Part shown: one piece after another, positions 1 through 14,430 of the stretch | Layout: every line of letters begins with the position of its first letter | Position numbering within the stretch: the first letter of the stretch is position 1 | Assembly: GCA_031553615.1 (NCBI GenBank) | Contig: JAVBLJ010000067.1 | Location: 1 to 14,430, forward strand | Direction: 5' to 3' | Length of the DNA stretch: 14,430 bases | Source: Eubacteriales bacterium | Lineage (GTDB): Bacteria; Bacillota; Clostridia; Christensenellales; Aristaeellaceae | Notes under the pieces: model-generated | Database searches by the model: none | The model's input: only the letters and a program-made list of their open reading frames with translations | What the model was told of the DNA's origin: nothing | Program-made: the position numbers and the translations under genes

Positions 1-937
<937 letters not shown>

Positions 938-941
938 TCGC

Positions 942-2702
942 TCATTCCTTTCGGCCCGCCTTCAACCGGTTCAGTTCTTGCATCAATGCACCGATCTGCG
1001 CCATCAAGTCGTGTTTCTCGTCCCCCGTAGCGGTGACGATCTCTTGCTTTAGCGCAGTGATGCGCTCCTCCAACCGGTGCCGCCGCACCCGCATCAGGCA
1101 ATCCGATGCAATGCGCAGCGCTTGTTCTTCCTCGCCCTTGAGTTCCGCGCCGAATATCTCGGCAATATCGCGCCGCTCAACGTCGTCGGCAGTGTCTTCC
1201 AATATTGCAGAGGGAGAATCCCCCTCGATTAACCGGCGCAACAGCGCGCGGTGCAATGGTTCTGTGAATTCCACGTCCTCCAGCAGCGACGGTTCAACGC
1301 GCTTAGCGGAGAGCAGGGAGAGCAGCGACCGTTCTGCCTTCAGGTGATCGGGCAACGCGGTGGCCTGCGTCGAGAGCGGATTGCGCCGGGGCACGTAGCT
1401 CTGCTGCGCCGTGACACCCGCCGAGCCGTGGCCAATCTGCTGAATCAGCACATCCCGCGAAAATCCGGTGACCAGGCTCAGGTGCCGCACGTGGTTTTCG
1501 AGCTCCACCGGCTCGCGCACCTTGCGCAGGATGATCGCGCACGCCTTTGCGTACTCCACCCGGCCCGTTTCCTCGCTCAAATCGAAGGATTGCGCCAGAT
1601 GCTCCATGCGATAGACCACGCCGTTTTGCGGCTTAAGCGCCTCAAATGCCGCCACGCCCTTGGTGCGCACAAACTCGTCCGGGTCCTTCGCGTCGGGGAA
1701 GGTGAGCACCTTGGCCGGAACCTCCTCGGCCTCCAGAATATCCAGCGCCCGCAAAATGGCCTGCTGCCCAGCGGAATCGCCATCGTAGGTCACCCAGATT
1801 TCCGGCGCGTAGCGTTTCATGAGCCGCGCCTGTTCCGGGGTAAGCGCCGTGCCCAGCGTAGCCAGCACGCCCTGCACGCCGCGCTGCACCAGCGAAACCA
1901 CGTCCATGTAGCCCTCAACCAGTATGATGCGATGCAGGTTGCGCACCTTGCGCAGCAGGTGGATGGCGTACACGCCCAACCGCTTGTTAAACACCGGCGT
2001 ATCGGGGGTGTTGAGGTACTTGGGCTGCGCGTCACCCATCGCGCGCCCGCCAAAGCCTAATACCTGGCTGTGCGCATTGATGATGGGAAACAGCGCGCGC
2101 TGGCGAAACATGTCGTAGAACCGTTCGTTCTTTTCCACCGTCAACCCGGCCTGTGCCAGCTCGCCGGGCGAGAAGCCCTGGGCGGTCAGCGCGCGGGTCA
2201 AAACCTCCCAGCCCCCGCTGGCCGCGCCCAGACCAAACTGCCGTATGGCGGCGTCGTCCATCCCGCGCCCGTGCAGGTAATCGAGCATCTCCTCACCGTC
2301 CGGGGTCCAAAGCCGCTCGTGGTACCATTGCGCCGCCGCTCTGTTGGCCGCGTAGATTCGCTCCTTGATCGAGCGCGTGCGCTCGTATTGCGGATCGTCC
2401 ACCAGCTCGGGCAGCGGCATGTGTATCCTTTCGGCGATGTGCCGCACCGCCTCCGGAAACTCCAGCCGCTCGATGTCCATCACGAACTGGATGACGCTTC
2501 CCCCAGCCTTGCAGCCAAAGCAATGGTACATCTGGCGATCCGGGTCTACGGTAAAGGAAGCGGTTTTCTCGTTGTGAAACGGGCAAAGGCCCCAATAGCG
2601 GCGACCGTTTTGCTTTAGCACGACGTATTCGGAAACCACGGTGACAATGTCCGCGCGCCCGCGAAGCTCGTCCAGCCATGCGGGAGAGAAGCGCCCAGCC
2701 AA
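942..2702 (-). CDS. dnaG: DNA primase DnaG
   Basis: 586-aa ORF with a TTG start. It has the CHC2 zinc finger [29 protein letters not shown] and the Toprim motif [13 protein letters not shown]. Its stop lies 4 nt upstream of the sigA start, the classic dnaG-sigA arrangement. Confidence 0.95.
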
Positions 2703-2790
2703 TCGATCACCGTCCTATTCATTCGCCGCAATGTGTACATTTCCTGCACGCAACGCCAAGATTTTCGCCGATGCAGGGTCGGCGAAGGGG

Positions 2791-3795
2791 TCAACGGTTG
2801 TCGAAAGCGTGCGGCAATATCATGCTTTCATAGCATCGCATGGCGTACCGATCGGTCATGCAGGCAACAAAATCGCAGACGCCGCGCGCGGTTCCCTCGT
2901 CCCTACAAATCTCCACATATTCCGCAGGCATGCGTTCCGGTTCGGCTAGGCAGAGCTTCACCAAATCGTCGAGTATATGGGCTACCTTGCGCTCTTCCTC
3001 CATGGCCGCTTGACACATGTACACGCGTTCAAACAGAAAATCCCGCAGCAGGTCGGTGGCCTCCCACACCGGCTCGGACATGGAAACCAAAGGTTTGCCA
3101 TCGCTCACCCGTACCACGTCGGCGATCATGGTGTCGATGCGTTCGCCGTGGGTCTCGCCCAGAACCGCCAAGCAGCGCGGCGGTAGGTCGCTCTGGCGGA
3201 TCAACCCCGCACGAATCGCGTCGTCAATATCGTGGTTGATGTAGGCGATGCGGTCTGCCAGGTGCACGCAACGGCCTTCGAACGTTTGGGGCTGCACCTC
3301 ACCGGAGTGGTGGGCGATACCGTCGCGAACCTCGAAGGTGAGGTTCAGGCCGCGCCCTTCCCCCTCCAGCCGGTCCACCACGCGCAGGCTCTGCGCAAGG
3401 TGGCTGAATCCGCCTTCGATCAGCCTATCGAGCGCGCGCTCGCCTGCGTGCCCAAAGGGGGTATGGCCCAAATCGTGGCCCAATGCAATGGCCTCGGTTA
3501 AATCCTCGTTCAGGTTCATGGCGCGGGAAATGGTGCGTGCGACCTGCGAAACCTCCAGCGTGTGCGTCAGCCGGGTGCGATAGTGATCGCCATCGGGGGC
3601 GAACATCATTTGCGTCTTGTGCTTGAGCCGCCGGAACGCTTTGGAATGCAGAATGCGGTCGCGGTCGCGCTGAAAATCGGTGCGCAGTGAGCAGGGCTCG
3701 ATCGGCCGCTCGCGTCCGCGCGTATCGGCGCTCGGCTTGGCCAATGGCGAAAGCATTTGACGCTCGCGCGCCTCCAGTTGTTCCCGAACCGTCAC
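2791..3795 (-). CDS. dgt: deoxyguanosinetriphosphate triphosphohydrolase-like HD-domain protein
   Basis: 334-aa ORF with a GTG start and a GAGAGGGAGGG Shine-Dalgarno. The HD motif ALGHDLGHTPFGHAGE and the N-terminus FQRDRDRILHSKAFRRLKHKTQ are typical of dGTPase-like proteins. The position immediately upstream of dnaG is typical for Firmicutes. Confidence 0.9.
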   Translation of the reverse strand: MTVREQLEARERQMLSPLAKPSADTRGRERPIEPCSLRTDFQRDRDRILHSKAFRRLKHKTQMMFAPDGDHYRTRLTHTLEVSQVARTISRAMNLNEDLTEAIALGHDLGHTPFGHAGERALDRLIEGGFSHLAQSLRVVDRLEGEGRGLNLTFEVRDGIAHHSGEVQPQTFEGRCVHLADRIAYINHDIDDAIRAGLIRQSDLPPRCLAVLGETHGERIDTMIADVVRVSDGKPLVSMSEPVWEATDLLRDFLFERVYMCQAAMEEERKVAHILDDLVKLCLAEPERMPAEYVEICRDEGTARGVCDFVACMTDRYAMRCYESMILPHAFDNR

Positions 3796-4151
3796 GCGCA
3801 GCCCTCCCTCTCGCCCGTGAAAGCCGTTTGCGAGTTTCCGGCTAACCGTACATGATAATTCGCCCCCCGGCTCATTAATCCCTAGCCATCCGGGAAAATT
3901 TTTATTGAATGTGGTATATCATGTAGATTCGACACAGATGCGCTTGGTTTGTATCCTATTGTATGCCAAATGAAGGAAAAGCTATACGCACACGCATTAT
4001 TGGCGCATATCGCCGCTGAATGCTCCCAAAAAAGAATCCAGAAAGGCGTGGCTGCTTTCAAAGGAAAAGGCGCACGCACCGCGAATCTCTAGGTACGAAG
4101 CACCCTTATGGCGTTCAATCCTGCACACCGAAAACACAGCGGGAGGTCCGT
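3796..4151. promoter_or_regulatory. AT-rich divergent intergenic region; promoters/5'UTRs for the minus-strand dgt-dnaG-sigA operon and for the plus-strand gene at 4152
   Basis: 356 nt of markedly lower GC between divergently oriented genes. It contains several -10/extended -10-like hexamers, for example TGgTATATC near 3925-3935 on plus. No coding frame has protein-like composition. Exact transcription start sites cannot be set from sequence alone. Confidence 0.4.
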
Positions 4152-5204
4152 ATGAGCACGAAGCAGCGCAATCACATGATCCCAAACATTCATCGCCTTG
4201 TAACCAGCGAACTCGGAGAAAACTACTGGTTCAATGGCGGCGCGAAATACGCAATGGAAGCGCTCGGCGAACCCGATTACGACTATTGGTTTTTCGCGGG
4301 ACTGACCGGCGACTTGTTTACGCAGCACTATGCCTATACGAGATCCCTGTGGGATGCCATTGACGGTTATCCGTTAGCGGAAACCCCTCATCGGTTTGTG
4401 AAGGAGCTATTCGGCAAGTGCGGATACGCCGCCGCCTATGTTTCCAAGCGGGAACTCAGGGAGAACACCGAGATGCATCTGAACACGCTGACCGCCTATA
4501 TCGACAAGGGCATCCCCATTATTACCACCATGCACCCGTGCGGCGTATATGTCGGCTATGAGGAATACGGCAAAGTCCTGCTCTACATAACCGGTGATAA
4601 CAGCCAACCGGAACGCATTACGCTGGCGGATGCGATCAGCGGGCAAAGCGCGTTTGAAATGGAGGCCAATACACAGGGCGGATGGATATTTGTCGGCGAG
4701 AAAAAAGAGGCTATCCCGCTTGCCAAGCTGTACCGCGAGACGATTTACTCGATTCCACAATACCATAATGTCAAAACCGACGCGTACTGCTTCGGCCCGG
4801 CGGCTTTCCGCGCATGGGCGGCGGATATAGAGAGCGGCAAGTTTAACGAGATAAAACCAGAGGTATTTGATACCTGGTATCACTACACCAATTATGTATG
4901 CATGCTCGCTACCAACGGGAGCTGTTGCCATGGATTTCTGAAGCGCGCGGAGGAGCTGAATCCAGACATGGGCTTCTTGCGGGAAGTCAGCAGATTGTAT
5001 AAGCGAACCGCTGAGATGTGGGGCGGCGATAACCATCACAACGACGCGGACAGCCTGGAAGCCCTGGGCGGCGGTTTCAACGTCACGCTGGCCACTTTGC
5101 AGGACGTGGGAAAGCGCGGCAAGATTGCGCGGAAAACTCGCGAAATCGCGGTCTGCATGGATCAGGTGCTGGATATCCTGCACGCGAATCCGGCCAAACA
5201 ATAA
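4152..5204 (+). CDS. hypothetical protein (351 aa), function not recognisable from sequence
   Basis: ATG at 4152 is preceded by GGGAGG at 6-nt spacing. The track ORF starting at 4020 has no Shine-Dalgarno and runs through AT-rich promoter DNA. Amino-acid composition is protein-like (W/Y/F-rich, no low complexity), whereas the overlapping minus ORF 4407..5201 is R/A/L-rich antisense junk. GC looks lower than the flanking core genes (judged by eye, not computed). Confidence 0.75.
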   Translation: MSTKQRNHMIPNIHRLVTSELGENYWFNGGAKYAMEALGEPDYDYWFFAGLTGDLFTQHYAYTRSLWDAIDGYPLAETPHRFVKELFGKCGYAAAYVSKRELRENTEMHLNTLTAYIDKGIPIITTMHPCGVYVGYEEYGKVLLYITGDNSQPERITLADAISGQSAFEMEANTQGGWIFVGEKKEAIPLAKLYRETIYSIPQYHNVKTDAYCFGPAAFRAWAADIESGKFNEIKPEVFDTWYHYTNYVCMLATNGSCCHGFLKRAEELNPDMGFLREVSRLYKRTAEMWGGDNHHNDADSLEALGGGFNVTLATLQDVGKRGKIARKTREIAVCMDQVLDILHANPAKQ

Positions 5205-5207
5205 GCT

Positions 5208-5235
5208 GTTTCCCGTTATAGGTTTCCTGTTATAG
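5208..5235. repeat. perfect-register tandem direct repeat, 2 x 14 nt (GTTTCCCGTTATAG / GTTTCCTGTTATAG)
   Basis: Seen directly in sequence, 4 nt after the stop of the 4152..5204 gene and about 135 nt upstream of the WYL operon. The two units differ at one position. Candidate site for a dimeric DNA-binding protein. Confidence 0.6.
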
Positions 5236-5340
5236 AACTGGCCTTTTTATTCCGCCGGCACCGTCGCTCCGGCAGGTCATGACGCGATTGCTCTGCCCGA
5301 GAGCGCATCGGCGTAGGATGGGTGCGCGGAAGCGTTGAAA

Positions 5341-5350
5341 ATGGTGTAAT
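5341..5350 (+). promoter_or_regulatory. candidate extended -10 element (aTGgTGTAAT) for the WYL-regulator operon; no recognisable -35
   Basis: TGn + TGTAAT (5/6 match to TATAAT) lies 22 nt upstream of the 5372 start. Almost the same 10-mer, ATGGTGTAAAT, recurs upstream of rtcB at 9330..9340. Confidence 0.3.
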
Positions 5351-5371
5351 CAGCAAAATACCCAGAAACGC

Positions 5372-6628
5372 GTGAGGTGTGCCGTGGCTTACAGTGAGCT
5401 GATCAAGAGCTTCGAGAGGATTCGCGACTACATGCGCGAGTTTTATGTGTATGGTTTCAAAAGCCGGGAAGAGATGGGCATCAAGTCGGCACGCGGATAT
5501 GACAACGAGCGGAGACGCATCGAGAGCTGGCTAGGAGACTGCATGGGGTTCCGGCACACACCGGAGGGAAAGAATGTGTTTCTTTCGGTAGACAGCCGAG
5601 GAATCACGCGCAATCCGCTGCATGTAGCATTTCGGGCCAAGAGCTTTACAAGGAACGACATCACGCTGCACTTTCTGCTGCTGGATATGCTTCACGGGAA
5701 TGTCGCACTAACGGCGCAGCAGGCGGCGGATCGGCTGGCTGCGGACTATCTGTGCCGCGCCCAGGACTGCGAGCTACCGGACGAATCCACGGTGCGGAAG
5801 AAACTGCTTGAATATGAGGAGCTTGGGCTGCTGGCAACGCGGACTGAAAATAGGAAACGGCTCTATGCCCGAAGCACAGACGACGTGAAGCTAAACCGGT
5901 GGGCGGACGCCATTGCCTTCTTCGCGGAAGCGGACAGCCTGGGCGTGATCGGCAGCTTCTTGCTGCCGCGACTAGAAAGCATGCCGCATGGTTTCCGCTT
6001 CAAGCATCATTACCTGTTGCGCGTGCTGGAAAGCGAGCTGCTGTTCACCGCGCTGATGGCCATCCGGGAGCGGCGCTACGTGATGCTGTATATGGGCGCA
6101 GGGCAGTTTGAACACAACATCACTTGGCGTGTCACGCCGGTGAAGGTGCTTAGCAGCACGCAGACCGGGCGTTACTATCTGTGCGCCTACAGCCAGCGGC
6201 GCGGCCGGTTGTGCTGCTATAGGATGGATCACATTCGGCACATTGAACCGCTGGATGCCGATCCTGAGTTCGAAGAGCGAAGTGCCCGGTTCGAGCAGGT
6301 CAAGCGCCACCTTTGGGGCGCGGGCATCGGCGGCAACCGCAGCGTGAGTCACCTCGAGATGACCGTGCAGGTGAGCGAGGGTGAAGACTACATTGTACAG
6401 CGGCTGATGCGCGAACGGCGCTGCGGCATCGTGGAGCAGGTGGATGAGACACACTGGCGCTACGTGGTAGACGTGTACGATCCCTATGAGGTCGGGCCGT
6501 GGATACGCACGTTTATCGGTCGCATTACGGCCTTTCAGTGCGACGACGCGGCGGTGGCGGAGCGGTTCCGCTCCGATGTGTGGGCGATGCTTCAGCAGTA
6601 TGGGGGTGACGCGGATGCTGTTCAGTGA
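5372..6628 (+). CDS. WYL-domain transcriptional regulator (wHTH-WYL-WCX architecture with an extra N-terminal domain); first of a PafB/PafC-like pair
   Basis: 418 aa. It has a WYL-type motif GRYYLCAYSQRRGRLCCYRMDHIRHIEPLD, a putative wHTH LTAQQAADRLAADYL...ESTVRKKLLEYEELGLLATR, and a C-terminal extension (WCX-like). The start is ambiguous: GTG 5372 is the longest, GTG 5384 follows GAGGTG, and ATG 5432 is also possible. The minus ORF 5972..6454 is an antisense shadow. Confidence 0.8.
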   Translation: MRCAVAYSELIKSFERIRDYMREFYVYGFKSREEMGIKSARGYDNERRRIESWLGDCMGFRHTPEGKNVFLSVDSRGITRNPLHVAFRAKSFTRNDITLHFLLLDMLHGNVALTAQQAADRLAADYLCRAQDCELPDESTVRKKLLEYEELGLLATRTENRKRLYARSTDDVKLNRWADAIAFFAEADSLGVIGSFLLPRLESMPHGFRFKHHYLLRVLESELLFTALMAIRERRYVMLYMGAGQFEHNITWRVTPVKVLSSTQTGRYYLCAYSQRRGRLCCYRMDHIRHIEPLDADPEFEERSARFEQVKRHLWGAGIGGNRSVSHLEMTVQVSEGEDYIVQRLMRERRCGIVEQVDETHWRYVVDVYDPYEVGPWIRTFIGRITAFQCDDAAVAERFRSDVWAMLQQYGGDADAVQ

Positions 6629-7520
6629 AGTCCACAGCGCTTATTTTCAGGCGGTGGCGCGCATTCTGACGGAGGCCATCGATGCGCCAGTCAGCCCTGG
6701 GCGCATGGACGAGATCGTGCGTGAGACGGCATTTGCGGAAAGCGTGCTGCATGTTGCCCCCGCACTTCGCTCGGGTGAATGGCCGCTCCTGACGCCAGAG
6801 GGGCGAGCGTTGGTTCGGAATATGCCGACGATGCCGCTGACGATGCTCGAAAAGCGCTGGTTGAAAGCGTTGCTGCTGGATCCGCGCGTCGCGCTGTTCG
6901 ATCCGCCATCTGACGGACTAGAGGATATAGAGCCGCTGTTCGATCCGGGCGATGTGTACTGGTTTGACCGTTATCTGGACGGCGATCCGTATGACAACCC
7001 CCAATATATCGCCAACTTCCGTATGGTGCTTCTGGCCCTCCGCGAGCGCCGCAAGCTGCGCATCGTATACACGGGCGCGAAGGGGCGCACGATCCGGGGC
7101 GTGTTTATGCCGGGCAATCTGGAATACTCGCAGAAGGATGACAAGTTCCGGCTGCACACGCTGGGCGGGAAAAGAATCTCGATCCGGCTGTCGACGGTGC
7201 TGGTGTGCGAGCCGGAGGAGCCGTTTAGTCCCGTTGCGTTCCAGCGCACGGAGCCAGGCGAGCAGCACATGCTGGAGATTGAAATCCGTGACGATCGGAA
7301 CGCCATGGAACGCGCGATGCTGCACTTCTCACATCTGAAGAAGGAGGCCGAGCGCGTGGGCGATGATCGCTACCGGATGAAACTCTGGTATGAGCAGGAA
7401 GACGAGACCGAGATGGTGATTCGTGTGCTATCCTTCGGGCCGATGGCGCGGGTGCTTGCTCCTGAGCAGCTTAAGCGGCAGGTCGTCGAACGGCTGGAAA
7501 ATCAAGTAAAGCTGATGTGA
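6615..7520 (+). CDS. WYL-domain protein, second member of the pair (PafC-like), overlapping the upstream gene by 14 nt
   Basis: ATG 6615 is preceded by GGGGGTGA. GTG 6606 is an alternative start. The track ORF from 6486 begins with R/S-rich junk in an alternate frame of the upstream gene. Sequence: MLFSEVHSAYFQAVARILTE..., a WYL-like core TGAKGRTIRGVFMPGNLEYSQKDDKFRLHTLG, and a C-terminal WCX-like domain ...YRMKLWYEQEDETEMVIRVLSFGPMARVLAPEQLKRQVVERL. Confidence 0.8.
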   Translation: MLFSEVHSAYFQAVARILTEAIDAPVSPGRMDEIVRETAFAESVLHVAPALRSGEWPLLTPEGRALVRNMPTMPLTMLEKRWLKALLLDPRVALFDPPSDGLEDIEPLFDPGDVYWFDRYLDGDPYDNPQYIANFRMVLLALRERRKLRIVYTGAKGRTIRGVFMPGNLEYSQKDDKFRLHTLGGKRISIRLSTVLVCEPEEPFSPVAFQRTEPGEQHMLEIEIRDDRNAMERAMLHFSHLKKEAERVGDDRYRMKLWYEQEDETEMVIRVLSFGPMARVLAPEQLKRQVVERLENQVKLM

Positions 7521-7528
7521 TCCATGAG

Positions 7529-7555
7529 CGTTTCCCTTCGGGGAGGCGTTTTTTT
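7529..7555 (+). terminator. Rho-independent terminator of the WYL operon
   Basis: Stem CGTTTCCC / GGGAGGCG (8 bp including 2 G-U pairs) with a UUCG tetraloop (7537-7540), followed by a run of 7 T. It starts 9 nt after the stop codon. Confidence 0.85.
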
Positions 7556-7576
7556 CATCCTCGCAACTTTTTTACC

Positions 7577-7605
7577 ATGACCTTCCATGGCACATTTGAT
7601 ATGAT
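7577..7605 (+). promoter_or_regulatory. candidate sigma-A promoter for the leader-SPFH-rtcB transcript (ATGACC -N17- TG-a-TATGAT)
   Basis: Extended -10 TGaTATGAT at 7597-7605. A -35-like ATGACC lies 17 nt upstream and is flanked by a CCATG...CATGG inverted repeat (7574-7590). It sits just downstream of the terminator. Confidence 0.4.
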
Positions 7606-8037
7606 GCCTTTGTCGCAGAAACCAAGCGTGGCGCTCAGGGACTTCCTCCCGGCGACCTGCGGTGCCCGGCGCGTTGCGCAGAGGGTATTTCGGTGAAGCG
7701 GCGTCGGTATGCATTGCGTGGGTTCGAGTCCCACCCTATCGTATGGATAGGCCAAGCGGTTATGGAATCGCTCGAAAGAGCACGCACCTGTTAAGTGTGA
7801 AGTCAAGGCAAGAAGGGAACCGGCAGAGGGCGCTCCGGCATGGCGAAAAGGGCAGCATACCGCCCACCGCCGTGCAGCGAGGCAAATGCCTTGCCGGGCG
7901 CGATCTTCTTCGGACACCGGCTTGCGGCCAGGGCACGAGCCTCCGCCGCCAGTCAGAGACCGAAGCGCGCGCCCGCCGCGAATGCCGCGTGGAACGCCCC
8001 GCCGCCCCGGTCAATTATCATGAGGAGGGAAAACCAT
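7606..8037 (+). promoter_or_regulatory. long, unusually GC-rich structured 5' leader of the SPFH gene (contains the tRNA-like element listed separately)
   Basis: About 430 nt with no protein-like ORF. The two track ORFs (7662..8081 + and 7555..7917 -) are R/A/P-rich junk. GC is far above that of normal intergenic DNA in this window. There is no T-run, so it reads through to the GAGGAGGG Shine-Dalgarno of the 8038 gene. Confidence 0.45.
7716..7800 (+). ncRNA. tRNA-like RNA element, apparently circularly permuted (T-arm, acceptor-like hairpin, D-arm-like, anticodon-arm-like); candidate cognate RNA of the SPFH/RtcB repair module
   Basis: 7718-7734: GTGGG TTCGAGT CCCAC is a perfect T-arm with the same T-loop as the real tRNA-Trp in this window. 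7735-7751: CCTATC gtatg GATAGG is a 6-bp hairpin. 7755-7772: AGCG gttatggaat CGCT is a 4-bp stem with a GG-containing loop. 7783-7799: a 5-bp stem enclosing the 7-nt loop CTGTTAA (U at position 2, A after the triplet). There is no canonical acceptor 5' strand and no CCA. The boundaries are approximate. Confidence 0.5.
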
Positions 8038-9138
8038 ATGAATATCATTGTAAACGAAAACCAGCGCGCGCTGCTGTTTAAGAACGGACGCTTTGTAAAG
8101 CTGCTGATGCCCGGCAAGCACCGCGCATTGTTTGGCAACTATAGCGTGCAAAAGGTCGAGGTTAAGGACGAGTTCCGCCCGGAGATCGGGCAGCTCAAGA
8201 ACTATGCGAACATGCCTGAGCTAGCAAGCCAACTGGCTACCGTTGAGGTAGGCGATGCGCAGGTGGCATTGCGCTTCGAGGACGGGCGTCTGATGCCCAG
8301 CGCGCTAAAAAGCGGGCTGCACGCGTTCTGGAAGGCGGGTTCTGAGCACACCTTTCAGCTGCTGGACGTAACGGAGCCGGAGATCAATGACGTCCCGCCC
8401 GTGCACCTCATGAGCATCCCTTACATGGTACAGCGCGTGGAGGTGTTGCCCGGGCAAAAGGCATTGCTGATGCGCGACGGCGAGTTTGTGAAGCTGCTTT
8501 GTGAAGGCACGCACTTTTACTGGAGGCAAGAAGTATCCGGCATCAAGATAAGCGCGCAGGTGGTGGACACGAAGCTTATGCAGATGAGCGTGCAAGGCCA
8601 GGAAGTGCTCTCGCTGGATAAGGTGGCGGTGCGCGCGAACTTCATCTGCCGCTACCGGATCACCGACTGTGTTCGCGCCATCACCGAAATCGCGGATTAT
8701 GAGGAGCAGTTGCATGTCGCGGCGCAACTTATCTTACGGGAGTACATCGGCCAGCACAGGCTGGATGAACTGCTGGAGAATCGCGAGCAGCTAGGCCAGT
8801 TTGTATTGCAGGGCATAAAGAAGCGTGAGTCCGAATTCTTCATCGAGGTGGTGGACGCGGGCGTTCGCGACATCATTCTGCCCGGCGAGATCCGCGAGAT
8901 CATGAACACCGTGCTGGTTGCCGAAAAAAAGGCGCAGGCCAACGTGATCACTCGTCGCGAAGAGGTTGCCTCTACCCGCAGCTTGCTGAACACTGCAAAG
9001 CTGATGGATGAGAACGCAACGCTGATGAAGCTCAAAGAAATGGAATACCTGGAAAAAATCTGCGAAAACGTGGGCTCCATCACCGTCCATGGCGGCAGCG
9101 ATCTACTGGGTCAGCTGGCTACAATGCTGAAAGCGTAA
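8038..9138 (+). CDS. SPFH/Band-7 (slipin/stomatin-like) domain protein, apparently soluble (no N-terminal TM segment)
   Basis: ATG 8038 follows GAGGAGGG with a 7-nt spacer. The track start at 7840 adds R/A-rich junk. The C-terminal two thirds match SPFH cores (...VRDIILPGEIREIMNTVLVAEKKAQANVITRREEVASTRSLLNTAKLMDENATLMKLKEMEYLEKI; compare QmcA ...IKDIDPPKEIQEAMEKQMKAERDKRA...). The N-terminus carries the SPFH strand motif twice (NQRALLFKNGRFVKLLMPG and GQKALLMRDGEFVKLLCEG). No hydrophobic stretch is long enough for a membrane anchor. Confidence 0.88.
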   Translation: MNIIVNENQRALLFKNGRFVKLLMPGKHRALFGNYSVQKVEVKDEFRPEIGQLKNYANMPELASQLATVEVGDAQVALRFEDGRLMPSALKSGLHAFWKAGSEHTFQLLDVTEPEINDVPPVHLMSIPYMVQRVEVLPGQKALLMRDGEFVKLLCEGTHFYWRQEVSGIKISAQVVDTKLMQMSVQGQEVLSLDKVAVRANFICRYRITDCVRAITEIADYEEQLHVAAQLILREYIGQHRLDELLENREQLGQFVLQGIKKRESEFFIEVVDAGVRDIILPGEIREIMNTVLVAEKKAQANVITRREEVASTRSLLNTAKLMDENATLMKLKEMEYLEKICENVGSITVHGGSDLLGQLATMLKA

Positions 9139-9329
9139 TGATGCCGACTGGAAGCGAAGCCATTATGAAACAATGAATCACAAAATCCTTCACGGATCGA
9201 GCGGAAAGAGGGCGTCAAAACCCTGCGCACTGCGGAGTCTGGAAGCAGGGCGCGGGTTTCGCCTCCCCGGACAGCGAGTACGTCGTCCGATTCGTCTAGG
9301 CCCGCTCCGCGCTGGATTACATGAAGCTG

Positions 9330-9340
9330 ATGGTGTAAAT
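9330..9340 (+). promoter_or_regulatory. candidate internal extended -10 promoter element upstream of rtcB (aTGgTGTAAAT), no recognisable -35
   Basis: Same 10-mer as at 5341-5350. It lies about 50 nt upstream of the rtcB ATG. There is no terminator between the SPFH gene and rtcB, so read-through is also expected. Confidence 0.3.
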
Positions 9341-9391
9341 GGGATGAGCTAAACGCGCTTTTTGCCACATCACGACGGGGGGATACACAAC

Positions 9392-10594
9392 ATGATCGAG
9401 ATCAAGGGAACGCACAACATCGCGTATGCTTTTACAAACGAAGTCGAGCCCAATGCCGCCGCGCAGATCCGAGACGTGTGCGATCAGCCGCATTTTGAAG
9501 GCTGCAAAATCCGGATCATGCCGGATGTTCACGCGGGCAAGGGCTGTACCATCGGCACCACAATGACGCTCACGGATAAGGTGGTGCCCAACATGGTGGG
9601 CGTTGACATCGGCTGCGGCATGGAGACGGTGCGCCTGCGCGAGCAGGAGATCGACTTCGTCAAACTGGACGGGGCGATCCGCGCGCATGTACCCTGTGGC
9701 CGCGAAGTGCGCGAACGGGAGCATCCGTACAACACGCAGATCGACCTGAGCAAGCTGCGCTGCGGCGGAGAATTGCAGCTCGGTCGCGCGCGCACGAGCA
9801 TCGGCACGCTAGGCGGCGGCAATCACTTCATCGAGGTGGATCGGGACGACGAGGGCAATCTGTACCTGGTGGTACACTCAGGCAGCCGCCACCTGGGCAC
9901 CGAGATCGCCGACTGGTATCAGCAGGAAGGGTTCCGCACGCTGTGCGGCAATGCCAAGGTGCAGATTGACGAACTGATCGCCGAGCTGAAACGCACCGGT
10001 CGGCGCAAGGAAATTCAGCAGCGCGTGCGGGAGACCAAGGCATTTAACACGCCGCCGGTGCCCGAAAGCCTGGCCTATGTAGAGGGCCGGCTGTTTGATG
10101 ATTATATCCACGACATGCGCATCACCCAGGCATTCGCGGCGCTCAACCGCAAGGCTATGGTGGATGTGATCCTCACCGAAATGGGTCTGCATAGCGAAGA
10201 TGCCTTCACTACCATTCACAACTATATCGACACCGAATCGATGATTCTTCGGAAGGGCGCGGTGTCGGCGCGCGCGGGCGAGAGGCTGTTGATCCCAATC
10301 AACATGCGCGATGGTTCCTTGCTGTGCACCGGCCTGGGGAACAACGACTGGAACCAGTCCGCGCCTCACGGAGCCGGGCGGCTAATGAGCCGCATGGAGG
10401 CCAACCGCAGGCTATCGCTTGAGCAGTTTAAGGACGAGATGCGGGGCATTTATTCCACTTCCGTCGGGAAAGACACCCTGGACGAATCGCCCATGGCCTA
10501 CAAAGGCATGGACGCAATCATATGCAACATCGGCCCGACGGCGCGCATTGAGAAGATCATCCGACCCGTGTACAATTTTAAGGCGTCGGTATAA
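9392..10594 (+). CDS. rtcB: RNA ligase RtcB (3'-phosphate/2',3'-cyclic-phosphate to 5'-OH RNA ligase)
   Basis: 400 aa from ATG 9392 (MIEIKGTHNIAYAF...). The track start at 9362 is a TTG 10 codons upstream. The protein carries the full set of RtcB metal/GTP-site signatures: RIMPDVHAGKG, VGVDIGCGM, GGGNHFIEV, VVHSGSRHLG, HNYID, ILRKGA, PINMRDG and APHGAGR. Confidence 0.95.
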   Translation: MIEIKGTHNIAYAFTNEVEPNAAAQIRDVCDQPHFEGCKIRIMPDVHAGKGCTIGTTMTLTDKVVPNMVGVDIGCGMETVRLREQEIDFVKLDGAIRAHVPCGREVREREHPYNTQIDLSKLRCGGELQLGRARTSIGTLGGGNHFIEVDRDDEGNLYLVVHSGSRHLGTEIADWYQQEGFRTLCGNAKVQIDELIAELKRTGRRKEIQQRVRETKAFNTPPVPESLAYVEGRLFDDYIHDMRITQAFAALNRKAMVDVILTEMGLHSEDAFTTIHNYIDTESMILRKGAVSARAGERLLIPINMRDGSLLCTGLGNNDWNQSAPHGAGRLMSRMEANRRLSLEQFKDEMRGIYSTSVGKDTLDESPMAYKGMDAIICNIGPTARIEKIIRPVYNFKASV

Positions 10595-10640
10595 AGGATC
10601 GATATAAGGGTTCGATATAAAGGATTGATAAAAAAAGGAA
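10594..10640. repeat. three imperfect tandem direct repeats (AAGGATCGATATAA / GGGTTCGATATAAA / GGATTGATAAAAAAA) filling the rtcB-downstream intergenic spacer
   Basis: Seen directly. The pattern is RGGDTYGATAWAAA x3 between the rtcB stop (10592-10594) and the AAGGAAGG Shine-Dalgarno of the next gene. Confidence 0.5.
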
Positions 10641-10650
10641 GGTGTTGGAC

Positions 10651-11628
10651 ATGAAATTCTTTACGCCCGAATGGGATTACGCTTCCCGGCGAACATCATT
10701 GAGCCTCGGACTGCACCCGGATAAGCGCGCCAAGACCTTCGATGAATCGTTTTACAACAGGGTATACCAGCAGGCGTATCAGCGCGAATATCGAATGATG
10801 AAGAGCGTTCACGAAGTCTCCCATGCGGAGTTGATCATGAGGATGTACAAGCCTTTATATGACGCGGACGAAATGAGCCGGGAGGACTATGAAACCGCGG
10901 TGGAAGATGCGCGCCGTCTGGACGCGGAAAAGCCTCCGTTTTGCGAGGAGGCCGTAATCAGCCGATGCCAAACGCAGCTAAGAAATTCGCAGAGGAGCTA
11001 TCAGCAGCTTCTGCCTTCGGAGATTCTCTCTCGGGTGGCGGACATCCGCGTACTCGCGGCGGGCGTGGCATCGCCGGAAGTGTACAAGACGATCAAAGCA
11101 TTCACGGCGGAAAATGACCGCCTGTCCGATCAAGTGCACGAGGCGCACTCAAAACAGCTTCAATTGATTTGGGACAATATCCCGAAGGAGATTCAGGAAA
11201 ATCTGTTTTCACTGCATGATGCAACACTGGAACGTATGGAACTGGGCGATCGCACACTGACCCTGTTCCTGATGCAGGATGGTGAAAATCACTACCGGGT
11301 TCACAGCATCACCTTTGAAGATTGTGATATCCTGCACATCGACGAACCGGTGGCCGGCGGATGGTGGAAATACGTCGAGTTCGACATCCTCGAGGACGGG
11401 CGATATGAGATAGGCATTCTGTTCACCGGCGCGGTGCAGAATGAAGACGACGATTGGTTTCACCAAACCATCGAAGTGCGCTCACCCAGGATTTCCTTTG
11501 TTCGTTATGAACTTACAGAGGATGAGATCAAAGCGCAACAAGCGATGTCAGAACGGGTAGAACGGCTCGAGCAAAAAGGGCTGGTGACGCGCCTTGCTCC
11601 CCTCGTTCGCGATGAAACGAAGGAATAG
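10651..11628 (+). CDS. hypothetical acidic protein (325 aa), probably co-transcribed with rtcB; possibly DUF4085-like (low certainty)
   Basis: ATG 10651 follows AAGGAAGGTG. The track ORF begins at a GTG 3 codons earlier. Sequence: MKFFTPEWDYASRR... No enzymatic motif was recognised, and the composition is protein-like. The N-terminal MK(F/Y)FT.EW pattern is, as I recall it, typical of the DUF4085 family. That is memory, not a search result. Confidence 0.8.
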   Translation: MKFFTPEWDYASRRTSLSLGLHPDKRAKTFDESFYNRVYQQAYQREYRMMKSVHEVSHAELIMRMYKPLYDADEMSREDYETAVEDARRLDAEKPPFCEEAVISRCQTQLRNSQRSYQQLLPSEILSRVADIRVLAAGVASPEVYKTIKAFTAENDRLSDQVHEAHSKQLQLIWDNIPKEIQENLFSLHDATLERMELGDRTLTLFLMQDGENHYRVHSITFEDCDILHIDEPVAGGWWKYVEFDILEDGRYEIGILFTGAVQNEDDDWFHQTIEVRSPRISFVRYELTEDEIKAQQAMSERVERLEQKGLVTRLAPLVRDETKE

Positions 11629-11642
11629 CATGATCGGGCAAC

Positions 11643-11669
11643 TCCCGGCAGGTTCTTTCCGAATGATCA
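11643..11669 (+). terminator. possible weak terminator after the rtcB-downstream gene
   Basis: Short hairpin CGGG caact CCCG followed by gcaggTTCTTT. The stem is short and the U-tract is poor. Confidence 0.25.
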
Positions 11670-11705
11670 CAACAGACCAACATTTCCGAAAAAACCAAAT
11701 ATCCA

Positions 11706-11748
11706 TTGACATCCTCAATACCATATGTTATAAATAACATATGGTATT
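11706..11748 (+). promoter_or_regulatory. sigma-A promoter (TTGACA -N17- TATAAAT) with an overlapping PadR-type operator, a perfect 15-bp inverted repeat containing ATGT-N8-ACAT
   Basis: TTGACA is at 11706-11711 and TATAAAT at 11729-11735 with exact 17-nt spacing. The palindrome AATACCATATGTTAT aa ATAACATATGGTATT spans 11717-11748 and covers the -10 and the expected transcription start. Confidence 0.7.
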
Positions 11749-11764
11749 GTTGGAGGTGATTGGA

Positions 11765-12700
11765 TTGACGATCGAATGCGCGATTTTAGGGCTGTTATGT
11801 CGCGAACCCTTGGCTGGATATGATCTGAAAAAGCGCATGCAAAATGCCCCGGAAATGCCTTGGTCGGGTAACAACAACCAAATCTATAAAGTCCTGAGCG
11901 CGTTGCTTGATGAAGGATTGTTGGAGAGCGAGCTGCAGCCTCAGGATGGCCTGCCCGCCAGAAAGGTGTACACAATCACCGCATTGGGCCGCACCACACT
12001 GAAGGAATGGCTAACCGCAGCACCTGAAATGATGGAACTCAAGAGCCCATTCCTCGCGCAGTTATCCGTTGCGAGCATCATTGGCGCACAGCAAGTGGAT
12101 GTGCTGCTGCATCAGTACGAGCGTCAACTTATGGCGCAGTTGCATACCCTTCCCGCCCTGTGCGATTCGGACGATTTCGATTCGGTATTGCGCTTGCTGG
12201 TTCAGGACAGCATAAAAACCAGCTATGAATCACAGCTTGGATGGGTACAACGCGCACGCGATACGCTTAGACCATTTGCGCAACAGGAACACACCGAAGC
12301 GCAAAATGTGCAGGAACACGAGGAAAATCCAGCGATGCCTTTTGACGTACTTGAGAAAAACGGTGAGAAGTACCTACATTACCGCGCTACGGCTTCCTGT
12401 CCGGAAACACTGATTCCCACACAGTTTGTCGCGGATTGTGTCGAGCAGTGTGTAAACCGCGTGATGCTGGAAGAATGTGCGCTGCCCGAGTCATTTTTCC
12501 GGCTGCGCACCGTGCTGGCGGGCGAGGTTTTACAAAAGCTTGAGCAGTACCGCGTGAGGGTCGCGCTTGTGTTAAGCCAATCGGGTGCCAAGGGAAAATT
12601 CAAGGATTTGCTGATTGAAGCAAATCGCGGAGGTCGGTTTCGCTCGTTTGCCAGCACGGAACAAGCGGAGAAATGGCTGACTGGGGAGGATGTCCAATGA
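11765..12700 (+). CDS. PadR-family transcriptional regulator with a long C-terminal extension
   Basis: The N-terminal domain ...ECAILGLLCREPLAGYDLKKRMQNAPEMPWSGNNNQIYKVLSALLDEGLLESELQPQDGLPARKVYTITALGRTTLKEWL is a canonical PadR wHTH. I chose the TTG at 11765 because GGAGGTGA lies 5 nt upstream. The in-frame ATG at 11741 (the track start) has no Shine-Dalgarno and lies inside the operator palindrome. It would fit only as a leaderless start. Confidence 0.85.
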   Translation: MTIECAILGLLCREPLAGYDLKKRMQNAPEMPWSGNNNQIYKVLSALLDEGLLESELQPQDGLPARKVYTITALGRTTLKEWLTAAPEMMELKSPFLAQLSVASIIGAQQVDVLLHQYERQLMAQLHTLPALCDSDDFDSVLRLLVQDSIKTSYESQLGWVQRARDTLRPFAQQEHTEAQNVQEHEENPAMPFDVLEKNGEKYLHYRATASCPETLIPTQFVADCVEQCVNRVMLEECALPESFFRLRTVLAGEVLQKLEQYRVRVALVLSQSGAKGKFKDLLIEANRGGRFRSFASTEQAEKWLTGEDVQ

Positions 12701-13533
12701 ATACAGCGTTTCAGTCGAAGGAAAATCGGGAGGCTGTACTTGGTTATTACGACAACATGATGGGAATGCTGCGGATACCTTATGAACGTTTGGAAATCGG
12801 TACGCGATATGGCCATACGTCGCTAATCGCGGCTGGCGATGCCCATAAACCGCCGCTGATTCTTTTGCACGGCAGCAGCATGAACGCGGCGATGTGGATC
12901 GGCGATATTCCGAAATACACGCAGGATTTTCGCGTGTACGCACCCGATCTCCCGGGCGAACCGGGAAGGAGCGACGAGCGTCAGCTGCCATTCGACACCG
13001 ACGATTACGCAAACTGGTTGCATGAGATAATGAACATGTTGCACATCGACGTAGTGTCCCTATGCGGCGCTTCCTTGGGCGGATGGCTGGCGACGAAGTT
13101 CGCTTCCCTGCATCCTGATCGCGTAGCGAAGCTGGCGCTGCTGTGCCCGGCAGGGATTGGTGGCCAAAACCATGCATTCAAGGAGATCGCAATGCGTCTA
13201 CTTCCTCAAGGCGAGGCGGGTGTGAACGAACTGTTCCGCCAAATTAACGGAGGCGACGAGATTCCGGAAGTGATGTTGAGCTATCAGAAACTGATCGCAT
13301 TCTGCTTCAATGCGCGGCAGGAACCCATCCCGTTATTTACCGATGAGGAGCTTATGAGGCTCGCGATGTCCGGTAGCGTCTTTCTCGGCGGACAGGACAT
13401 CATGCTGAACTCAAACGAAACTGCCGCGCGAGTGCGCCGATTGCTGCCTCACTTTGAGGTGGTAGAACTGCCAACTTTGGGGCATTCGCTTGCGGGGCAG
13501 GGGGCTTCTGTGTTGGAGTTTCTTGCTAAGTAA
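12697..13533 (+). CDS. alpha/beta-fold hydrolase
   Basis: ATG 12697 overlaps the PadR stop (ATGA) and follows GGGGAGGA. HG motif LILLHGSS, nucleophile elbow GASLGG, and a C-terminal His region (LGHSL). The track start at 12673 is less likely because it has no Shine-Dalgarno. Confidence 0.88.
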   Translation: MNTAFQSKENREAVLGYYDNMMGMLRIPYERLEIGTRYGHTSLIAAGDAHKPPLILLHGSSMNAAMWIGDIPKYTQDFRVYAPDLPGEPGRSDERQLPFDTDDYANWLHEIMNMLHIDVVSLCGASLGGWLATKFASLHPDRVAKLALLCPAGIGGQNHAFKEIAMRLLPQGEAGVNELFRQINGGDEIPEVMLSYQKLIAFCFNARQEPIPLFTDEELMRLAMSGSVFLGGQDIMLNSNETAARVRRLLPHFEVVELPTLGHSLAGQGASVLEFLAK

Positions 13534-13599
13534 TACTATTCCTCGTTCGATTTCACGCAATAGATCGCGGAAGGTTTTTGCGAATGGCTAGGAGCCTGA

Positions 13600-13628
13600 G
13601 GTCAGCGTAGCTGGCAGCTACGCTGACC
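13600..13628. repeat. near-perfect 14-bp inverted repeat (GGTCAGCGTAGCTG g CAGCTACGCTGACC) in the hydrolase 3' region
   Basis: Seen directly. There is no following U-tract, so it is not an intrinsic terminator. It could be an RNA stability hairpin or a protein-binding palindrome. Confidence 0.5.
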
Positions 13629-13755
13629 GAAGCGCGACAACGTCATTCGGATAAATATCCGCGAGATATTTCAGCGGAGCGCACTTCAATCGAAATCACC
13701 CTGTTTTTGCACAGTTCATAAAAAACAATTTCTCCCCCCATTTTCCGAGGACAAG

Positions 13756-13783
13756 CAAAAAAGCCCGCTGCTGCGGGCTTTTT
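13756..13783. terminator. bidirectional Rho-independent terminator (AAAAAA GCCCGC tgct GCGGGC TTTTTT)
   Basis: Perfect 6-7 bp GC stem flanked by an A6 run and a T6 run. It terminates the minus-strand tRNA-Trp transcript and any plus-strand read-through from the hydrolase operon. Confidence 0.85.
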
Positions 13784-13822
13784 TGCATTGTGTGGTAACC
13801 TACAAGAAGTTACCCACGAATT

Positions 13823-13896
13823 TGGCAGGGGCAGAAGGACTCGAACCCTCAACAAAGGTTTTGGAGACCCACGTGTTACCATTACACCATGCCCCT
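13823..13896 (-). tRNA. trnW: tRNA-Trp (anticodon CCA), CCA 3' end encoded
   Basis: Reverse complement: AGGGGCA TG GTGT AATGGTA ACAC G TGGGT CTCCAAA ACCTT TGTTG GAGGG TTCGAGT CCTTC TGCCCCT G CCA. The 7-bp acceptor is identical to Bacillus tRNA-Trp. The D-arm and the T-arm (GG-TTCGAGT-CC) are canonical. The anticodon loop is CU-CCA-AA. Confidence 0.93.
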
Positions 13897-13909
13897 ACGA
13901 ACAGGAGCA

Positions 13910-13938
13910 ATTGTACCGCACCCGGGCAGCGTTGTCAA
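13910..13938 (-). promoter_or_regulatory. consensus sigma-A promoter for tRNA-Trp (TTGACA -N17- TACAAT on the minus strand)
   Basis: Reverse complement of 13933-13938 is TTGACA and of 13910-13915 is TACAAT, with a 17-nt spacer. The -10 ends about 13 nt before the mature tRNA 5' end. Confidence 0.55.
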
Positions 13939-14034
13939 GCATTTTTGAATGACAAACTTGGTACAATCGGGCTGCGATCTGGGCGGCAATCCTGTACAGC
14001 AATCCTCATGAAAGAATAACGGAAAGATTAGCGG

Positions 14035-14063
14035 ATGACATTTGCTCAACCGGGTGGTATGAT
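14035..14063 (+). promoter_or_regulatory. candidate promoter of the MATE gene (ATGACA -N17- TG-g-TATGAT)
   Basis: Extended -10 at 14055-14063 and a -35-like ATGACA at 14035-14040. GGAGGA Shine-Dalgarno at 14083-14088. A second extended -10-like TGgTACAAT lies at 13959-13967. Confidence 0.5.
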
Positions 14064-14094
14064 GATTGCAATCGCGCGCACAGGAGGATTGCAT

Positions 14095-14430
14095 ATGGTA
14101 AAGGATCGGTCGTTTTACCGCACGCTGCTCATGCTAGCGCTGCCGGTGGCGCTCAAGGCGCTGATTTCGCGCGGCGTCTCCTTCCTGGATAACATGATGG
14201 TCAGTTCTCTGGGCGAAACCGCATTTGCCTCGGTGGCCTTAGCGAATCAAACAACCAATCTGTTCACCTTTTTCGTGATGGGCGTGGGCGGCGGCGCATC
14301 GGTGCTCATCTCGCAATATTGGGGCAAGCGCGAGCTGGAACCGGTGAAATCCGTGTTCTCCATCGTGTTCAGCATCTCCACCGCGGTCGCCCTGGCCGTG
14401 ACGCTGCTCATAGCCTTTCTGCCCGGGCAA
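14095..14430 (+). CDS. MATE-family multidrug/toxin efflux transporter, N-terminal 112 codons (continues past the window end)
   Basis: ATG 14095 follows GGAGGA. MVKDRSFYRTLLMLALPVALKALISRGVSFLDNMMVSSLGETAFASVALANQTTNLFTFFVMGVGGGASVLISQYWGKRE... is the typical MATE N-terminus (TM1-TM3 pattern). The frame is open to the last base. Confidence 0.88.
   Translation, partial: MVKDRSFYRTLLMLALPVALKALISRGVSFLDNMMVSSLGETAFASVALANQTTNLFTFFVMGVGGGASVLISQYWGKRELEPVKSVFSIVFSISTAVALAVTLLIAFLPGQ

Follow-up and report, generated by a model that had tools for sequence, protein, structure and literature searches.

A conserved multi-domain RNA with a YrlA-type permuted tRNA-like module is linked to WYL, SPFH and RtcB genes

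Background

The Y RNA YrlA has an effector domain that mimics tRNA, and RNAs of this kind have been described as 'circularly permuted tRNAs' (Chen et al. 2014; Wang et al. 2018, bioRxiv 10.1101/312249): in the structure, the T stem-loop (nucleotides (nt) 33-49) is followed by the acceptor stem-loop (nt 50-64) and the D stem-loop (nt 67-81). YrlA is processed from an rsr-yrlBA-rtcBA transcript and occasionally adjoins a Band-7 gene (bioRxiv 10.1101/312249). According to the same preprint, Burroughs and Aravind (2016) predicted a tRNA associated with band 7 (b7a-tRNA) next to RtcB; it has no model in Rfam 15, and no later paper describing or validating a Band-7-associated tRNA-like RNA was found in the searchable literature. 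RtcB repair operons are widespread, and their bacterial substrates and cofactors are poorly known. The subject of this paper is an RNA of about 400 nt encoded in a 14,430-nt stretch of DNA (the window) from a Eubacteriales bacterium of the Aristaeellaceae (assembly GCA_031553615.1, contig JAVBLJ010000067.1, positions 1 to 14,430). It contains a tRNA-like element and lies in the 517-nt interval between the second of two genes for WYL-domain proteins (WYL1 and WYL2) and a gene for an SPFH/Band-7 protein, which an RtcB gene follows.

This RNA is conserved, consists of several domains and is the first element of a promoter-driven operon, genetically locked to the WYL pair, SPFH and RtcB. Positions 7718-7765 form a tRNA-like module made up of a T-arm, a loop-closed acceptor-like stem and a miniature D-arm.

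A tRNA-like module conserved upstream of SPFH

An alignment of 32 SPFH homologs was used to fetch 80 reference-genome loci, among at least 585 SPFH loci found; they belong almost entirely to Clostridia and Erysipelotrichales, plus one Lentisphaerae contig, and more loci were obtained through single contig look-ups. The tRNA-like element lies about 250-480 nt upstream of SPFH in 66 of 85 loci, a WYL1 homolog stands upstream of the RNA in 61 and a WYL2 homolog in 67, and RtcB is found downstream of SPFH in 54. The gene order WYL pair, RNA, SPFH, RtcB is fixed, and an earlier note on this DNA, which had tied a tRNA-like RNA to SPFH and RtcB, was right on this point. The RNA is present in many gut and rumen Clostridia and in cultured strains, among them Oscillibacter valericigenes Sjm18-20 (L077; AP012044.1, 468655-479737), Robinsoniella peoriensis CCUG 48729 (L013) and Dielma fastidiosa JC13 (L039). 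The closest relative found with a DNA record is locus L091, whose SPFH protein is 62% identical; the SPFH protein P0002 is 74% identical and comes without a DNA record, and a metagenome scan returned only relatives of 37-66% identity.

A covariance model of the core, built from 16 homologous loci with the window left out, matches the window over its full length at 7714-7784 (39.3 bits, E ~6e-6). It also matches 65 loci at E <=0.003 in the same place upstream of SPFH, plus L091 with 42.8 bits. Nearly all loci show GCGGG-UUCGAAU-CCCGC or a near variant, then a hairpin, then the D-like arm CCA(A)-GYGGUU-(U)UGG and, in most cases, a short stem capped by GAAA or UUCG (hp1). The T-arm is canonical (5 bp, loop UUCRANY), and the D-loop, AGCGGUUA in the window, holds a conserved GG as in tRNA. 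In the core alignment 97.0% of cells are standard pairs, compared with 77.8% after shuffling and about 37% (33-48%) with slid partners, and 17 of 21 pairs change on both sides; these pairing percentages lean towards the model because the alignment was fitted to it. The diversity of the acceptor-like stem, whose sequence differs in almost every lineage, is plain in the raw sequences, apart from any model-fitted alignment. The D-like arm covaries (for example, CCAG/UUGG versus CCGG/UCGG), and the stem of hp1 occurs as GCCG/CGGC, GUCC/GGAC and GCUC/GAGC, among others.

The earlier note had drawn the element as a tRNA permuted with its break point in the variable loop, built from four stems: GTGGG-TTCGAGT-CCCAC (7718-7734), CCTATC-gtatg-GATAGG (7735-7751), AGCG/CGCT (7755-7758 with 7769-7772) and CGCAC-CTGTTAA-GTGTG (7783-7799). 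All four are present in the DNA, and the genuine tRNA-Trp of the window (13823-13896, minus strand), about 6 kb away, has the same T-loop, TTCGAGT. Comparison of the regions upstream of SPFH upholds part of this drawing: the T-arm and the acceptor-like hairpin recur in 66 of 85 loci with strong covariation, and together with a D-like arm they exceed chance, as the score of the core model also indicates. The D and anticodon arms as drawn fail this comparison. Across the family, the stem AGCG/CGCT is paired in 76.8% of cells, while shuffling gives a mean of 76.7% and reaches or exceeds the observed value in 263 of 500 trials. This stem also overlaps the covarying GNRA hairpin hp1, with which it is incompatible. 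At the place of the anticodon arm a hairpin recurs (hp2), but its loop is not conserved, being GAAA, UUAU or 15 nt long elsewhere and GAGAGG in L091. The break point in the variable loop fails the comparative test.

Searches for a tRNA in native order agree with the note's view that this is neither a tRNA gene nor a tmRNA nor an integrase attachment-site remnant: neither ARAGORN nor the tRNA or tmRNA model of Rfam reports anything at the element, and the only cloverleaf that ARAGORN and the Rfam tRNA model give in the window is tRNA-Trp. When the window sequence is re-permuted, ARAGORN calls a tRNA-Asn(GTT) only if the 10-nt linker is deleted and makes no call when that linker is left as it is. 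Among 300 controls with scrambled D and anticodon segments it reports a tRNA in 6, and among 80 re-permuted constructs from other loci in only 4. The literature that the note drew on for Band-7/RtcB-linked tRNA-like RNA and for YrlA was given correctly in substance (Wang et al.). The permuted topology, which it had taken to be undescribed, is not new, since the order T-arm, closed acceptor hairpin, D-arm is the one published for YrlA (Chen et al. 2014; Wang et al. 2018).

In many members, among them L012, L016, L023, L031 and L061, another hairpin resembling a T-arm (UGGGG-UUCAACU-CCCCR) lies upstream of the main T-arm at a distance of 35-60 nt, and there is one more hairpin whose loop has 7 nt. 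Some forms of the RNA thus hold two incomplete tRNA-like units.

The module is one domain of a larger RNA

The element had been taken for a small stand-alone fold in a plain, GC-rich leader. It is instead one domain of a conserved structured RNA of about 400 nt (Table 1), for which covariation supports three regions and all of whose family blocks are found in the window. GC content does not distinguish the interval (54-64%) from the flanking genes (54-65%). Minimum-free-energy folding of the leader is uninformative: on this GC-rich sequence it yields a z-score of only -2 and a structure that conflicts with the comparative helices. Alignment of the whole interval from 67 loci with MAFFT and RNAalifold recovered few helices because the lengths of insertions vary, and domain-wise and subgroup alignments were used after that attempt.

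On the 5' side, hairpin B1 corresponds to the conserved block GGUGC...GUAUGCC, whose family form GGUGCNC...GNGUAUGCC covaries: among 50 sequences, the pair at alignment positions 24-44 is AU in 21, GC in 19 and CG in 9, and the inner pair 31-35 is AU in 20 and CG in 20. The preceding helix P1 is a moderately supported prediction, resting on compensatory differences seen by inspection. The 3' domain is enclosed by P-outer, a 10-bp long-range helix of GCAAUUGCUC with GAGUGAUUGC that covaries in L061, L041, L043, L093 and L005. Within it lies a rod of successive stems, the coordinates of which were mapped onto the window by hand.

Positions 7700-7713 (CGGCG-UC-GGUAUGC) are complementary to 7857-7874 (GCAUACC-GCCCAC-CGCCG) and could form a helix of 7+5 bp. 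It would be a pseudoknot or an alternative fold, since it would cross the candidate P-outer helix of the window. L091 lacks both the GGUAUGCAU insert and its GCAUACC counterpart. A pairing of the 3' tail of B1 (UAUGCC...) with the GCAAUUGCUCGGC block, closing the tRNA-like domain as in YrlA, was considered and dropped: covariation pairs GCAAUUGCUC with the 3' GAGUGAUUGC, and unrestricted duplex searches for the closing B1/GCAAUUGCUCGGC pairing gave a messy picture.

Neither the window nor any of 14 other loci gives a match at gathering level to a family of Rfam 15. Permissive searches return weak matches of the YrlA, tmRNA and mascRNA types on the T-arms and nothing more.

Promoter and upstream box

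Transcription is predicted to start at about 7611-7613, downstream of an extended -10 promoter that has 9 of 12 matches in a promoter scan, with TG ahead of the -10 element; the family consensus TGGTAAAAT stands at the same place. About 20 nt upstream of this promoter is the conserved box GTTCGCAGCTTTTTTTCCGTGA, a candidate operator for the WYL pair. This box (TCGCAACTTTTTTACCATGA in the window) also serves in part as the 3' half and T run of the upstream terminator. No terminator was found in 7610-8037, that is, before SPFH, and the 3' tails of the family contain no conserved anti-Shine-Dalgarno element; signs of a terminator-type riboswitch or attenuator were thus sought in these two places and not found.

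Four loci (L029, L047, L049 and L062) have extra open reading frames (ORFs) between the RNA and SPFH, so the RNA need not contact the SPFH ribosome-binding site (RBS). The inserted ORFs comprise one of 215 amino acids (aa) in L049 (2802-3449) and two of 100 and 80 aa in L029 (4412-4969).

Anticodon-loop mimics

Hairpins in which a stem of at least 4 bp closes a seven-nucleotide CUNNNRN loop number 52 in the family, against 20.4±4.2 in shuffled sequences and 9 in an SPFH coding control, an enrichment that is overstated because the sequences are phylogenetically related; generic hairpins with 7-nt loops are not enriched in the family. Twenty anticodon-like hairpins stand directly 5' of the T-arm, typically with a 5-nt 'variable loop' between, and their loops include CUGUCAA, CUGUAAA, CUGACAA and CUUUUAA. 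Elsewhere in the family, the acceptor-like hairpin or the hp1 and hp2 positions carry anticodon-like loops. The commonest loops match anticodon loops of Escherichia coli tRNAs: CUGUAAA (Tyr), CUGUUAA (Asn; hp2 of the window) and CUUUUAA (Lys); CUGUCAA contains the Asp anticodon GUC. The trinucleotide UGU at positions 33-35 is an identity element for tRNA-guanine transglycosylase and colicin E5. The anticodon-like hairpins are a real but optional feature of the family.

In four loci ARAGORN makes poor native-order calls (L015 4665-4744, L061 2309-2387, L065 4623-4702 and L078 4626-4705): tRNA-Asp(gtc) and tRNA-Lys(ttt) of low quality, whose acceptor and D stems contain mismatches. These calls arise from the anticodon-like arm, variable loop and T-arm of the RNA, and annotation pipelines may report spurious tRNAs at such loci.

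Genes of the operon and its surroundings

The WYL pair has a PafB/PafC-like arrangement and is likely the regulator of the SPFH-RtcB operon. As mechanically listed, the two WYL ORFs overlap by 143 nt, and the true WYL2 start is therefore probably later. The SPFH gene has an RBS, GAGGAGGG, at 8022-8029. Its product carries an N-terminal extension of about 170 aa (8038-8550) ahead of the stomatin-like core; residues 1-170 have no sequence match in the PDB, and in the consensus of the 32 homologs an NGK-F...G-KY-like motif apparently occurs three times in the N-terminus. No obvious membrane anchor was seen in SPFH. PADLOC does not list the SPFH or RtcB proteins of this locus as a known defence system.

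Elsewhere in the window, Pfam identifies dnaG (942-2702) and a gene for an HD-domain phosphohydrolase (2791-3795), both on the minus strand, and further products with a DUF4085 domain, a PadR-DUF4180 protein and a hydrolase; an ORF at 4020-5204 (394 aa) has no Pfam assignment. At other loci, an RlaP-family gene stands after RtcB in L090 (5843-6601), and L081 (4606-5573) has an SPFH homolog without the RNA beside the BREX genes BrxB and BrxC. Locus L087, the marine metagenome contig ORXT01013367, carries eight tRNA genes (470-1812) some 700 nt upstream of an SPFH homolog of 39% identity, an array that amounts to a phage-like tRNA cluster adjoining SPFH. A scan of viral contigs with the 3'-domain pattern gave seven matches, none with the tRNA-like core alongside, and thus no evidence of a phage-borne RNA.

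Table 1. Coordinates of the RNA, its parts and the genes and signals around it in the window
Feature	Position	Strand	Evidence or remark
WYL-domain protein 1	5372-6628	+	Pfam WYL E 3.5e-5; PADLOC WYL E 2.3e-10
WYL/WCX-domain protein 2	6486-7520	+	Pfam WCX E 9.5e-6; PADLOC WYL E 1.1e-9
Intrinsic terminator of the WYL gene pair	7526-7551/7558	+	11-bp stem, then T run
Conserved box TCGCAACTTTTTTACCATGA (family consensus GTTCGCAGCTTTTTTTCCGTGA)	7561-7580	+	nearly all loci, at constant distance to the -10 element
Promoter: -35-like ATGACC, 17-nt spacer, extended -10 TGATATGAT (7597-7605)	7577-7605	+	promoter scan
Whole conserved structured RNA, ~400 nt, both ends approximate	7611-8011	+	conserved blocks over the entire WYL2-SPFH interval in 67 aligned loci
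Putative 5' helix P1, GCG[U]GGCGC with GCG[A]CCUGC, enclosing a variable hairpin (7638-7650)	7626-7660	+	seen on inspecting the window, L005 and the consensus; compensatory differences
5' hairpin B1, GUGCCC with GGGUAU, enclosing GCGC-GUU-GCGC	7662-7688	+	alignment fold, 50 sequences
T-arm, 5-bp stem and loop UUCGAGU	7718-7734	+	pairs in 100% of cells; 3/5 pairs covary
Acceptor-like hairpin, 5-nt loop, abutting the T-arm	7735-7751	+	7/7 model pairs compensatory; 96.7% of cells pair
D-like arm CCA-AGCGGTTA-TGG	7752-7765	+	96.1% of cells pair; 2/4 pairs covary
Hairpin hp1, GCUC-GAAA-GAGC (GNRA tetraloop)	7770-7781	+	5/5 model pairs covary
Hairpin hp2, loop CUGUUAA	7783-7799	+	position recurrent, loop not
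P-outer, candidate 5' strand (ACCGG...GGGCG)	7819-7832	+	homology to the family helix GCAAUUGCUC/GAGUGAUUGC; window pairing from helix enumeration
P-outer, candidate 3' strand (CGCCC...CCGGU)	7995-8011	+	inferred for the window
3' rod domain	7877-7990	+	alignment fold, 57 sequences: 27/30 pairs compensatory
Rod H1 (long variable stem)	7877-7887 with 7980-7990	+	
Rod conserved junction, GCCUUG with CCGC	7888-7893 with 7976-7979	+	
Rod H2 (second stem)	7895-7902 with 7968-7975	+	
Rod highly conserved internal loop (nGGAUACC with ACUNAA), containing CGGACACC	7911-7918	+	followed by H3
Rod H4 terminal hairpin, GCCA-GGGC...GCCU-CCGC	7924-7949	+	family GCCAAAAG...CUUUCCGC
SPFH/Band-7 (stomatin-like) protein	8038-9138	+	Pfam Band_7 E 2.2e-31; PDB stomatin matches, residues 173-347
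RtcB RNA ligase	9362-10594	+	Pfam RtcB E 2.4e-59

Possible roles of the RNA

The RNA may act as the RNA partner of an SPFH-RtcB repair complex, the likeliest reading, with roughly an even chance of being correct. In its favour are the covarying helices of the core and of the other domains, the fixed gene order, the promoter and upstream box with no terminator ahead of SPFH, the loci where ORFs part the RNA from SPFH, and the precedents of YrlA and the b7a-tRNA prediction. RNA damage would lead the WYL pair to activate the extended -10 promoter, and the RNA would be made in cis with SPFH and RtcB, either kept as the 5' part of the transcript or processed out in the manner of YrlA. It might then join an oligomeric SPFH scaffold, with the conserved 3' rod domain as the probable protein-binding handle, and present its tRNA-shaped elbow of T-loop and D-loop to RtcB or to other tRNA-recognising factors; in many lineages an anticodon-arm mimic could be presented as well. 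The RNA would thereby be the adaptor of an SPFH-RtcB repair particle and the counterpart of Y RNA with Ro60. A scaffold role fits the stomatin-like part of SPFH, since stomatins form 16-mer assemblies in solved structures. Several observations weigh against this picture. We infer both ends of the RNA, and its equation with the predicted b7a-tRNA is indirect. SPFH has no identified RNA-binding domain. The constant position of the RNA upstream of the genes and on their strand, with no terminator between, fits a cis-acting leader equally well. Finally, six members (L090, L092, L093, L082, L068 and L043) keep the T-arm and have no recognisable D-like arm, so the full tRNA-like elbow is not universal.

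A cis-acting regulatory leader is the reading that this arrangement brings to mind: a structured 5' untranslated region whose tRNA mimic would be an operator bound by RtcB, by SPFH or by ligands related to damaged or uncharged tRNA, and which would set transcript stability or translation through substrate mimicry. The operator of thrS, which mimics tRNA-Thr, is a precedent. The RNA is always directly upstream of the genes, on the same strand and behind its own promoter; its conserved blocks reach to within about 30-40 nt of the RBS; and some sequences allow alternative pairings between the 3' strand of B1 and the 5' strand of H1 (8 bp in L005, by inspection). However, a simple translational operator is disfavoured by the ORFs that part the RNA from SPFH in at least four loci, by the missing terminator, antiterminator and anti-Shine-Dalgarno elements, none of which was found conserved, and by a length of 400 nt and the presence of three covarying domains, far beyond the needs of known protein-binding operators. 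The YrlA precedent is moreover that of a trans-acting RNA from the same kind of operon. The leader reading is a serious rival, though less likely than that of the repair-complex partner. Chance resemblance, a decayed tRNA gene or an integrase attachment-site remnant might be suspected, given that isolated T-arm-like hairpins are common and that a real tRNA-Trp gene lies in the window; this idea is refuted by the constant placement with respect to SPFH in 66 loci from several Bacillota families and one Lentisphaerae contig, together with compensatory changes in every helix, and its probability is negligible.

The anticodon-loop mimics raise the further idea that the RNA is a sentinel or decoy: the tRNA-shaped domain and its lineage-specific loops would be bait for ribotoxins (anticodon nucleases), and cleavage followed by re-ligation by RtcB would protect tRNAs or signal damage to the WYL sensors. 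The enrichment of CUNNNRN hairpins points this way, as do the resemblance of the commonest loops to real anticodon loops of E. coli tRNAs and the shifts of loop identity between lineages, such as an arms race would give. Hughes et al. (2020) suggested for YrlA that its tRNA-like domain might competitively inhibit an anticodon nuclease. Yet the enrichment is inflated by relatedness, the mimic is missing from many members including L091 and has no fixed position, and no nuclease is known for these organisms, all of which leaves the decoy improbable. We rate equally low a bolder version, in which the RNA would be a subunit of an uncharacterised SPFH-cage/RtcB ribonucleoprotein in gut Clostridia, with exchangeable baits in the form of anticodon arms (Asp, Tyr, Asn, Lys and the like) that are cut by a nuclease and resealed by RtcB, coupling damage sensing by the WYL pair to repair; if true, the RNA would be both decoy and sensor, with a bait co-evolving with ribotoxins. 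That the RNA is a genuine YrlA, bound to a Ro60/Rsr protein whose gene lies elsewhere, would fit the order of arms, the RtcB neighbourhood and the weak model matches, but the scores, the motifs, the flanking strands and the length set out below make this very unlikely.

The form now given to the predicted RNA makes several questions directly testable: what tRNA-like modules do in RNA repair, whether an SPFH scaffold binds RNA and whether WYL regulators sense RNA damage.

Comparison with known systems

The RNA is closest in architecture to YrlA (RF02553). It has the same order of T-arm, loop-closed acceptor-like stem and D-arm, the canonical T-loop and the GG in the D-loop, and it belongs likewise to an RNA-repair operon with RtcB, in the same transcription unit as the proteins. 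The best Rfam signal of the window is a local YrlA match that covers exactly the T-arm and the next hairpin, and in its sub-threshold alignments the YrlA model keeps the order T, acceptor, D. Unlike YrlA, however, the RNA scores only 18 bits in the window (model positions 31-62) and 14.8 bits over the full length in L016, far under the gathering score of 69. The ten window ORFs scanned, to which that Pfam scan was confined, include no TROVE-domain (Ro60/Rsr) product, and no GNCGAAN0-1G Ro-binding motif is visible by inspection in the 5' region (7611-7717). The module is flanked by further hairpins and not by a stem leading to the ends of the RNA, and the pairs of the YrlA closing stem are non-canonical in the L016 alignment. 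The D-arm has a stem of 3-4 bp and a loop of 4-8 nt, compared with 4 bp and 9 nt in YrlA; the RNA has additional 5' and 3' domains and three to four times the length; and its partner is SPFH and its regulator a WYL pair, whereas YrlA systems have RtcR. By these tests, all made on sequence, the RNA is not a YrlA.

Circularly permuted tRNA genes are found in some algae, and in permuted tmRNA (RF04321) the arms are likewise encoded in rearranged order. Those RNAs are processed to free, aminoacylatable acceptor ends, whereas the acceptor-like stem here is closed by a loop and has no CCA; the permuted tmRNA model gives only 12.8 bits on L016. The shoulder domain of the major vault protein MVP is SPFH-like, and TEP1 and Ro60 share the TROVE domain. 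Vault and Ro ribonucleoproteins resemble the present system in the genetic coupling of an oligomeric SPFH-type scaffold to a small or medium-sized structured non-coding RNA, a pure analogy in which homology between the RNAs is not expected.

As far as the b7a-tRNA can be judged from its description in bioRxiv 10.1101/312249, the RNA most likely is the Band-7-associated tRNA-like RNA of the prediction by Burroughs and Aravind (2016). It resembles tRNA and is encoded beside Band-7/SPFH and RtcB genes, and the poor native-order ARAGORN tRNAs in four loci are the kind of signal that such a prediction would use. In that description the b7a-tRNA strongly resembles an authentic tRNA, whereas the core here is permuted and sits within a far larger RNA. 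The prediction would thus take on a concrete form, that of a large, covariation-supported, YrlA-type permuted tRNA mimic absent from Rfam. What appears to be new is the large multi-domain RNA itself, its WYL-pair context and the anticodon-loop mimics at varying positions: a tRNA-mimicking non-coding RNA of RNA-repair operons that is larger than YrlA, differently partnered and uncatalogued.

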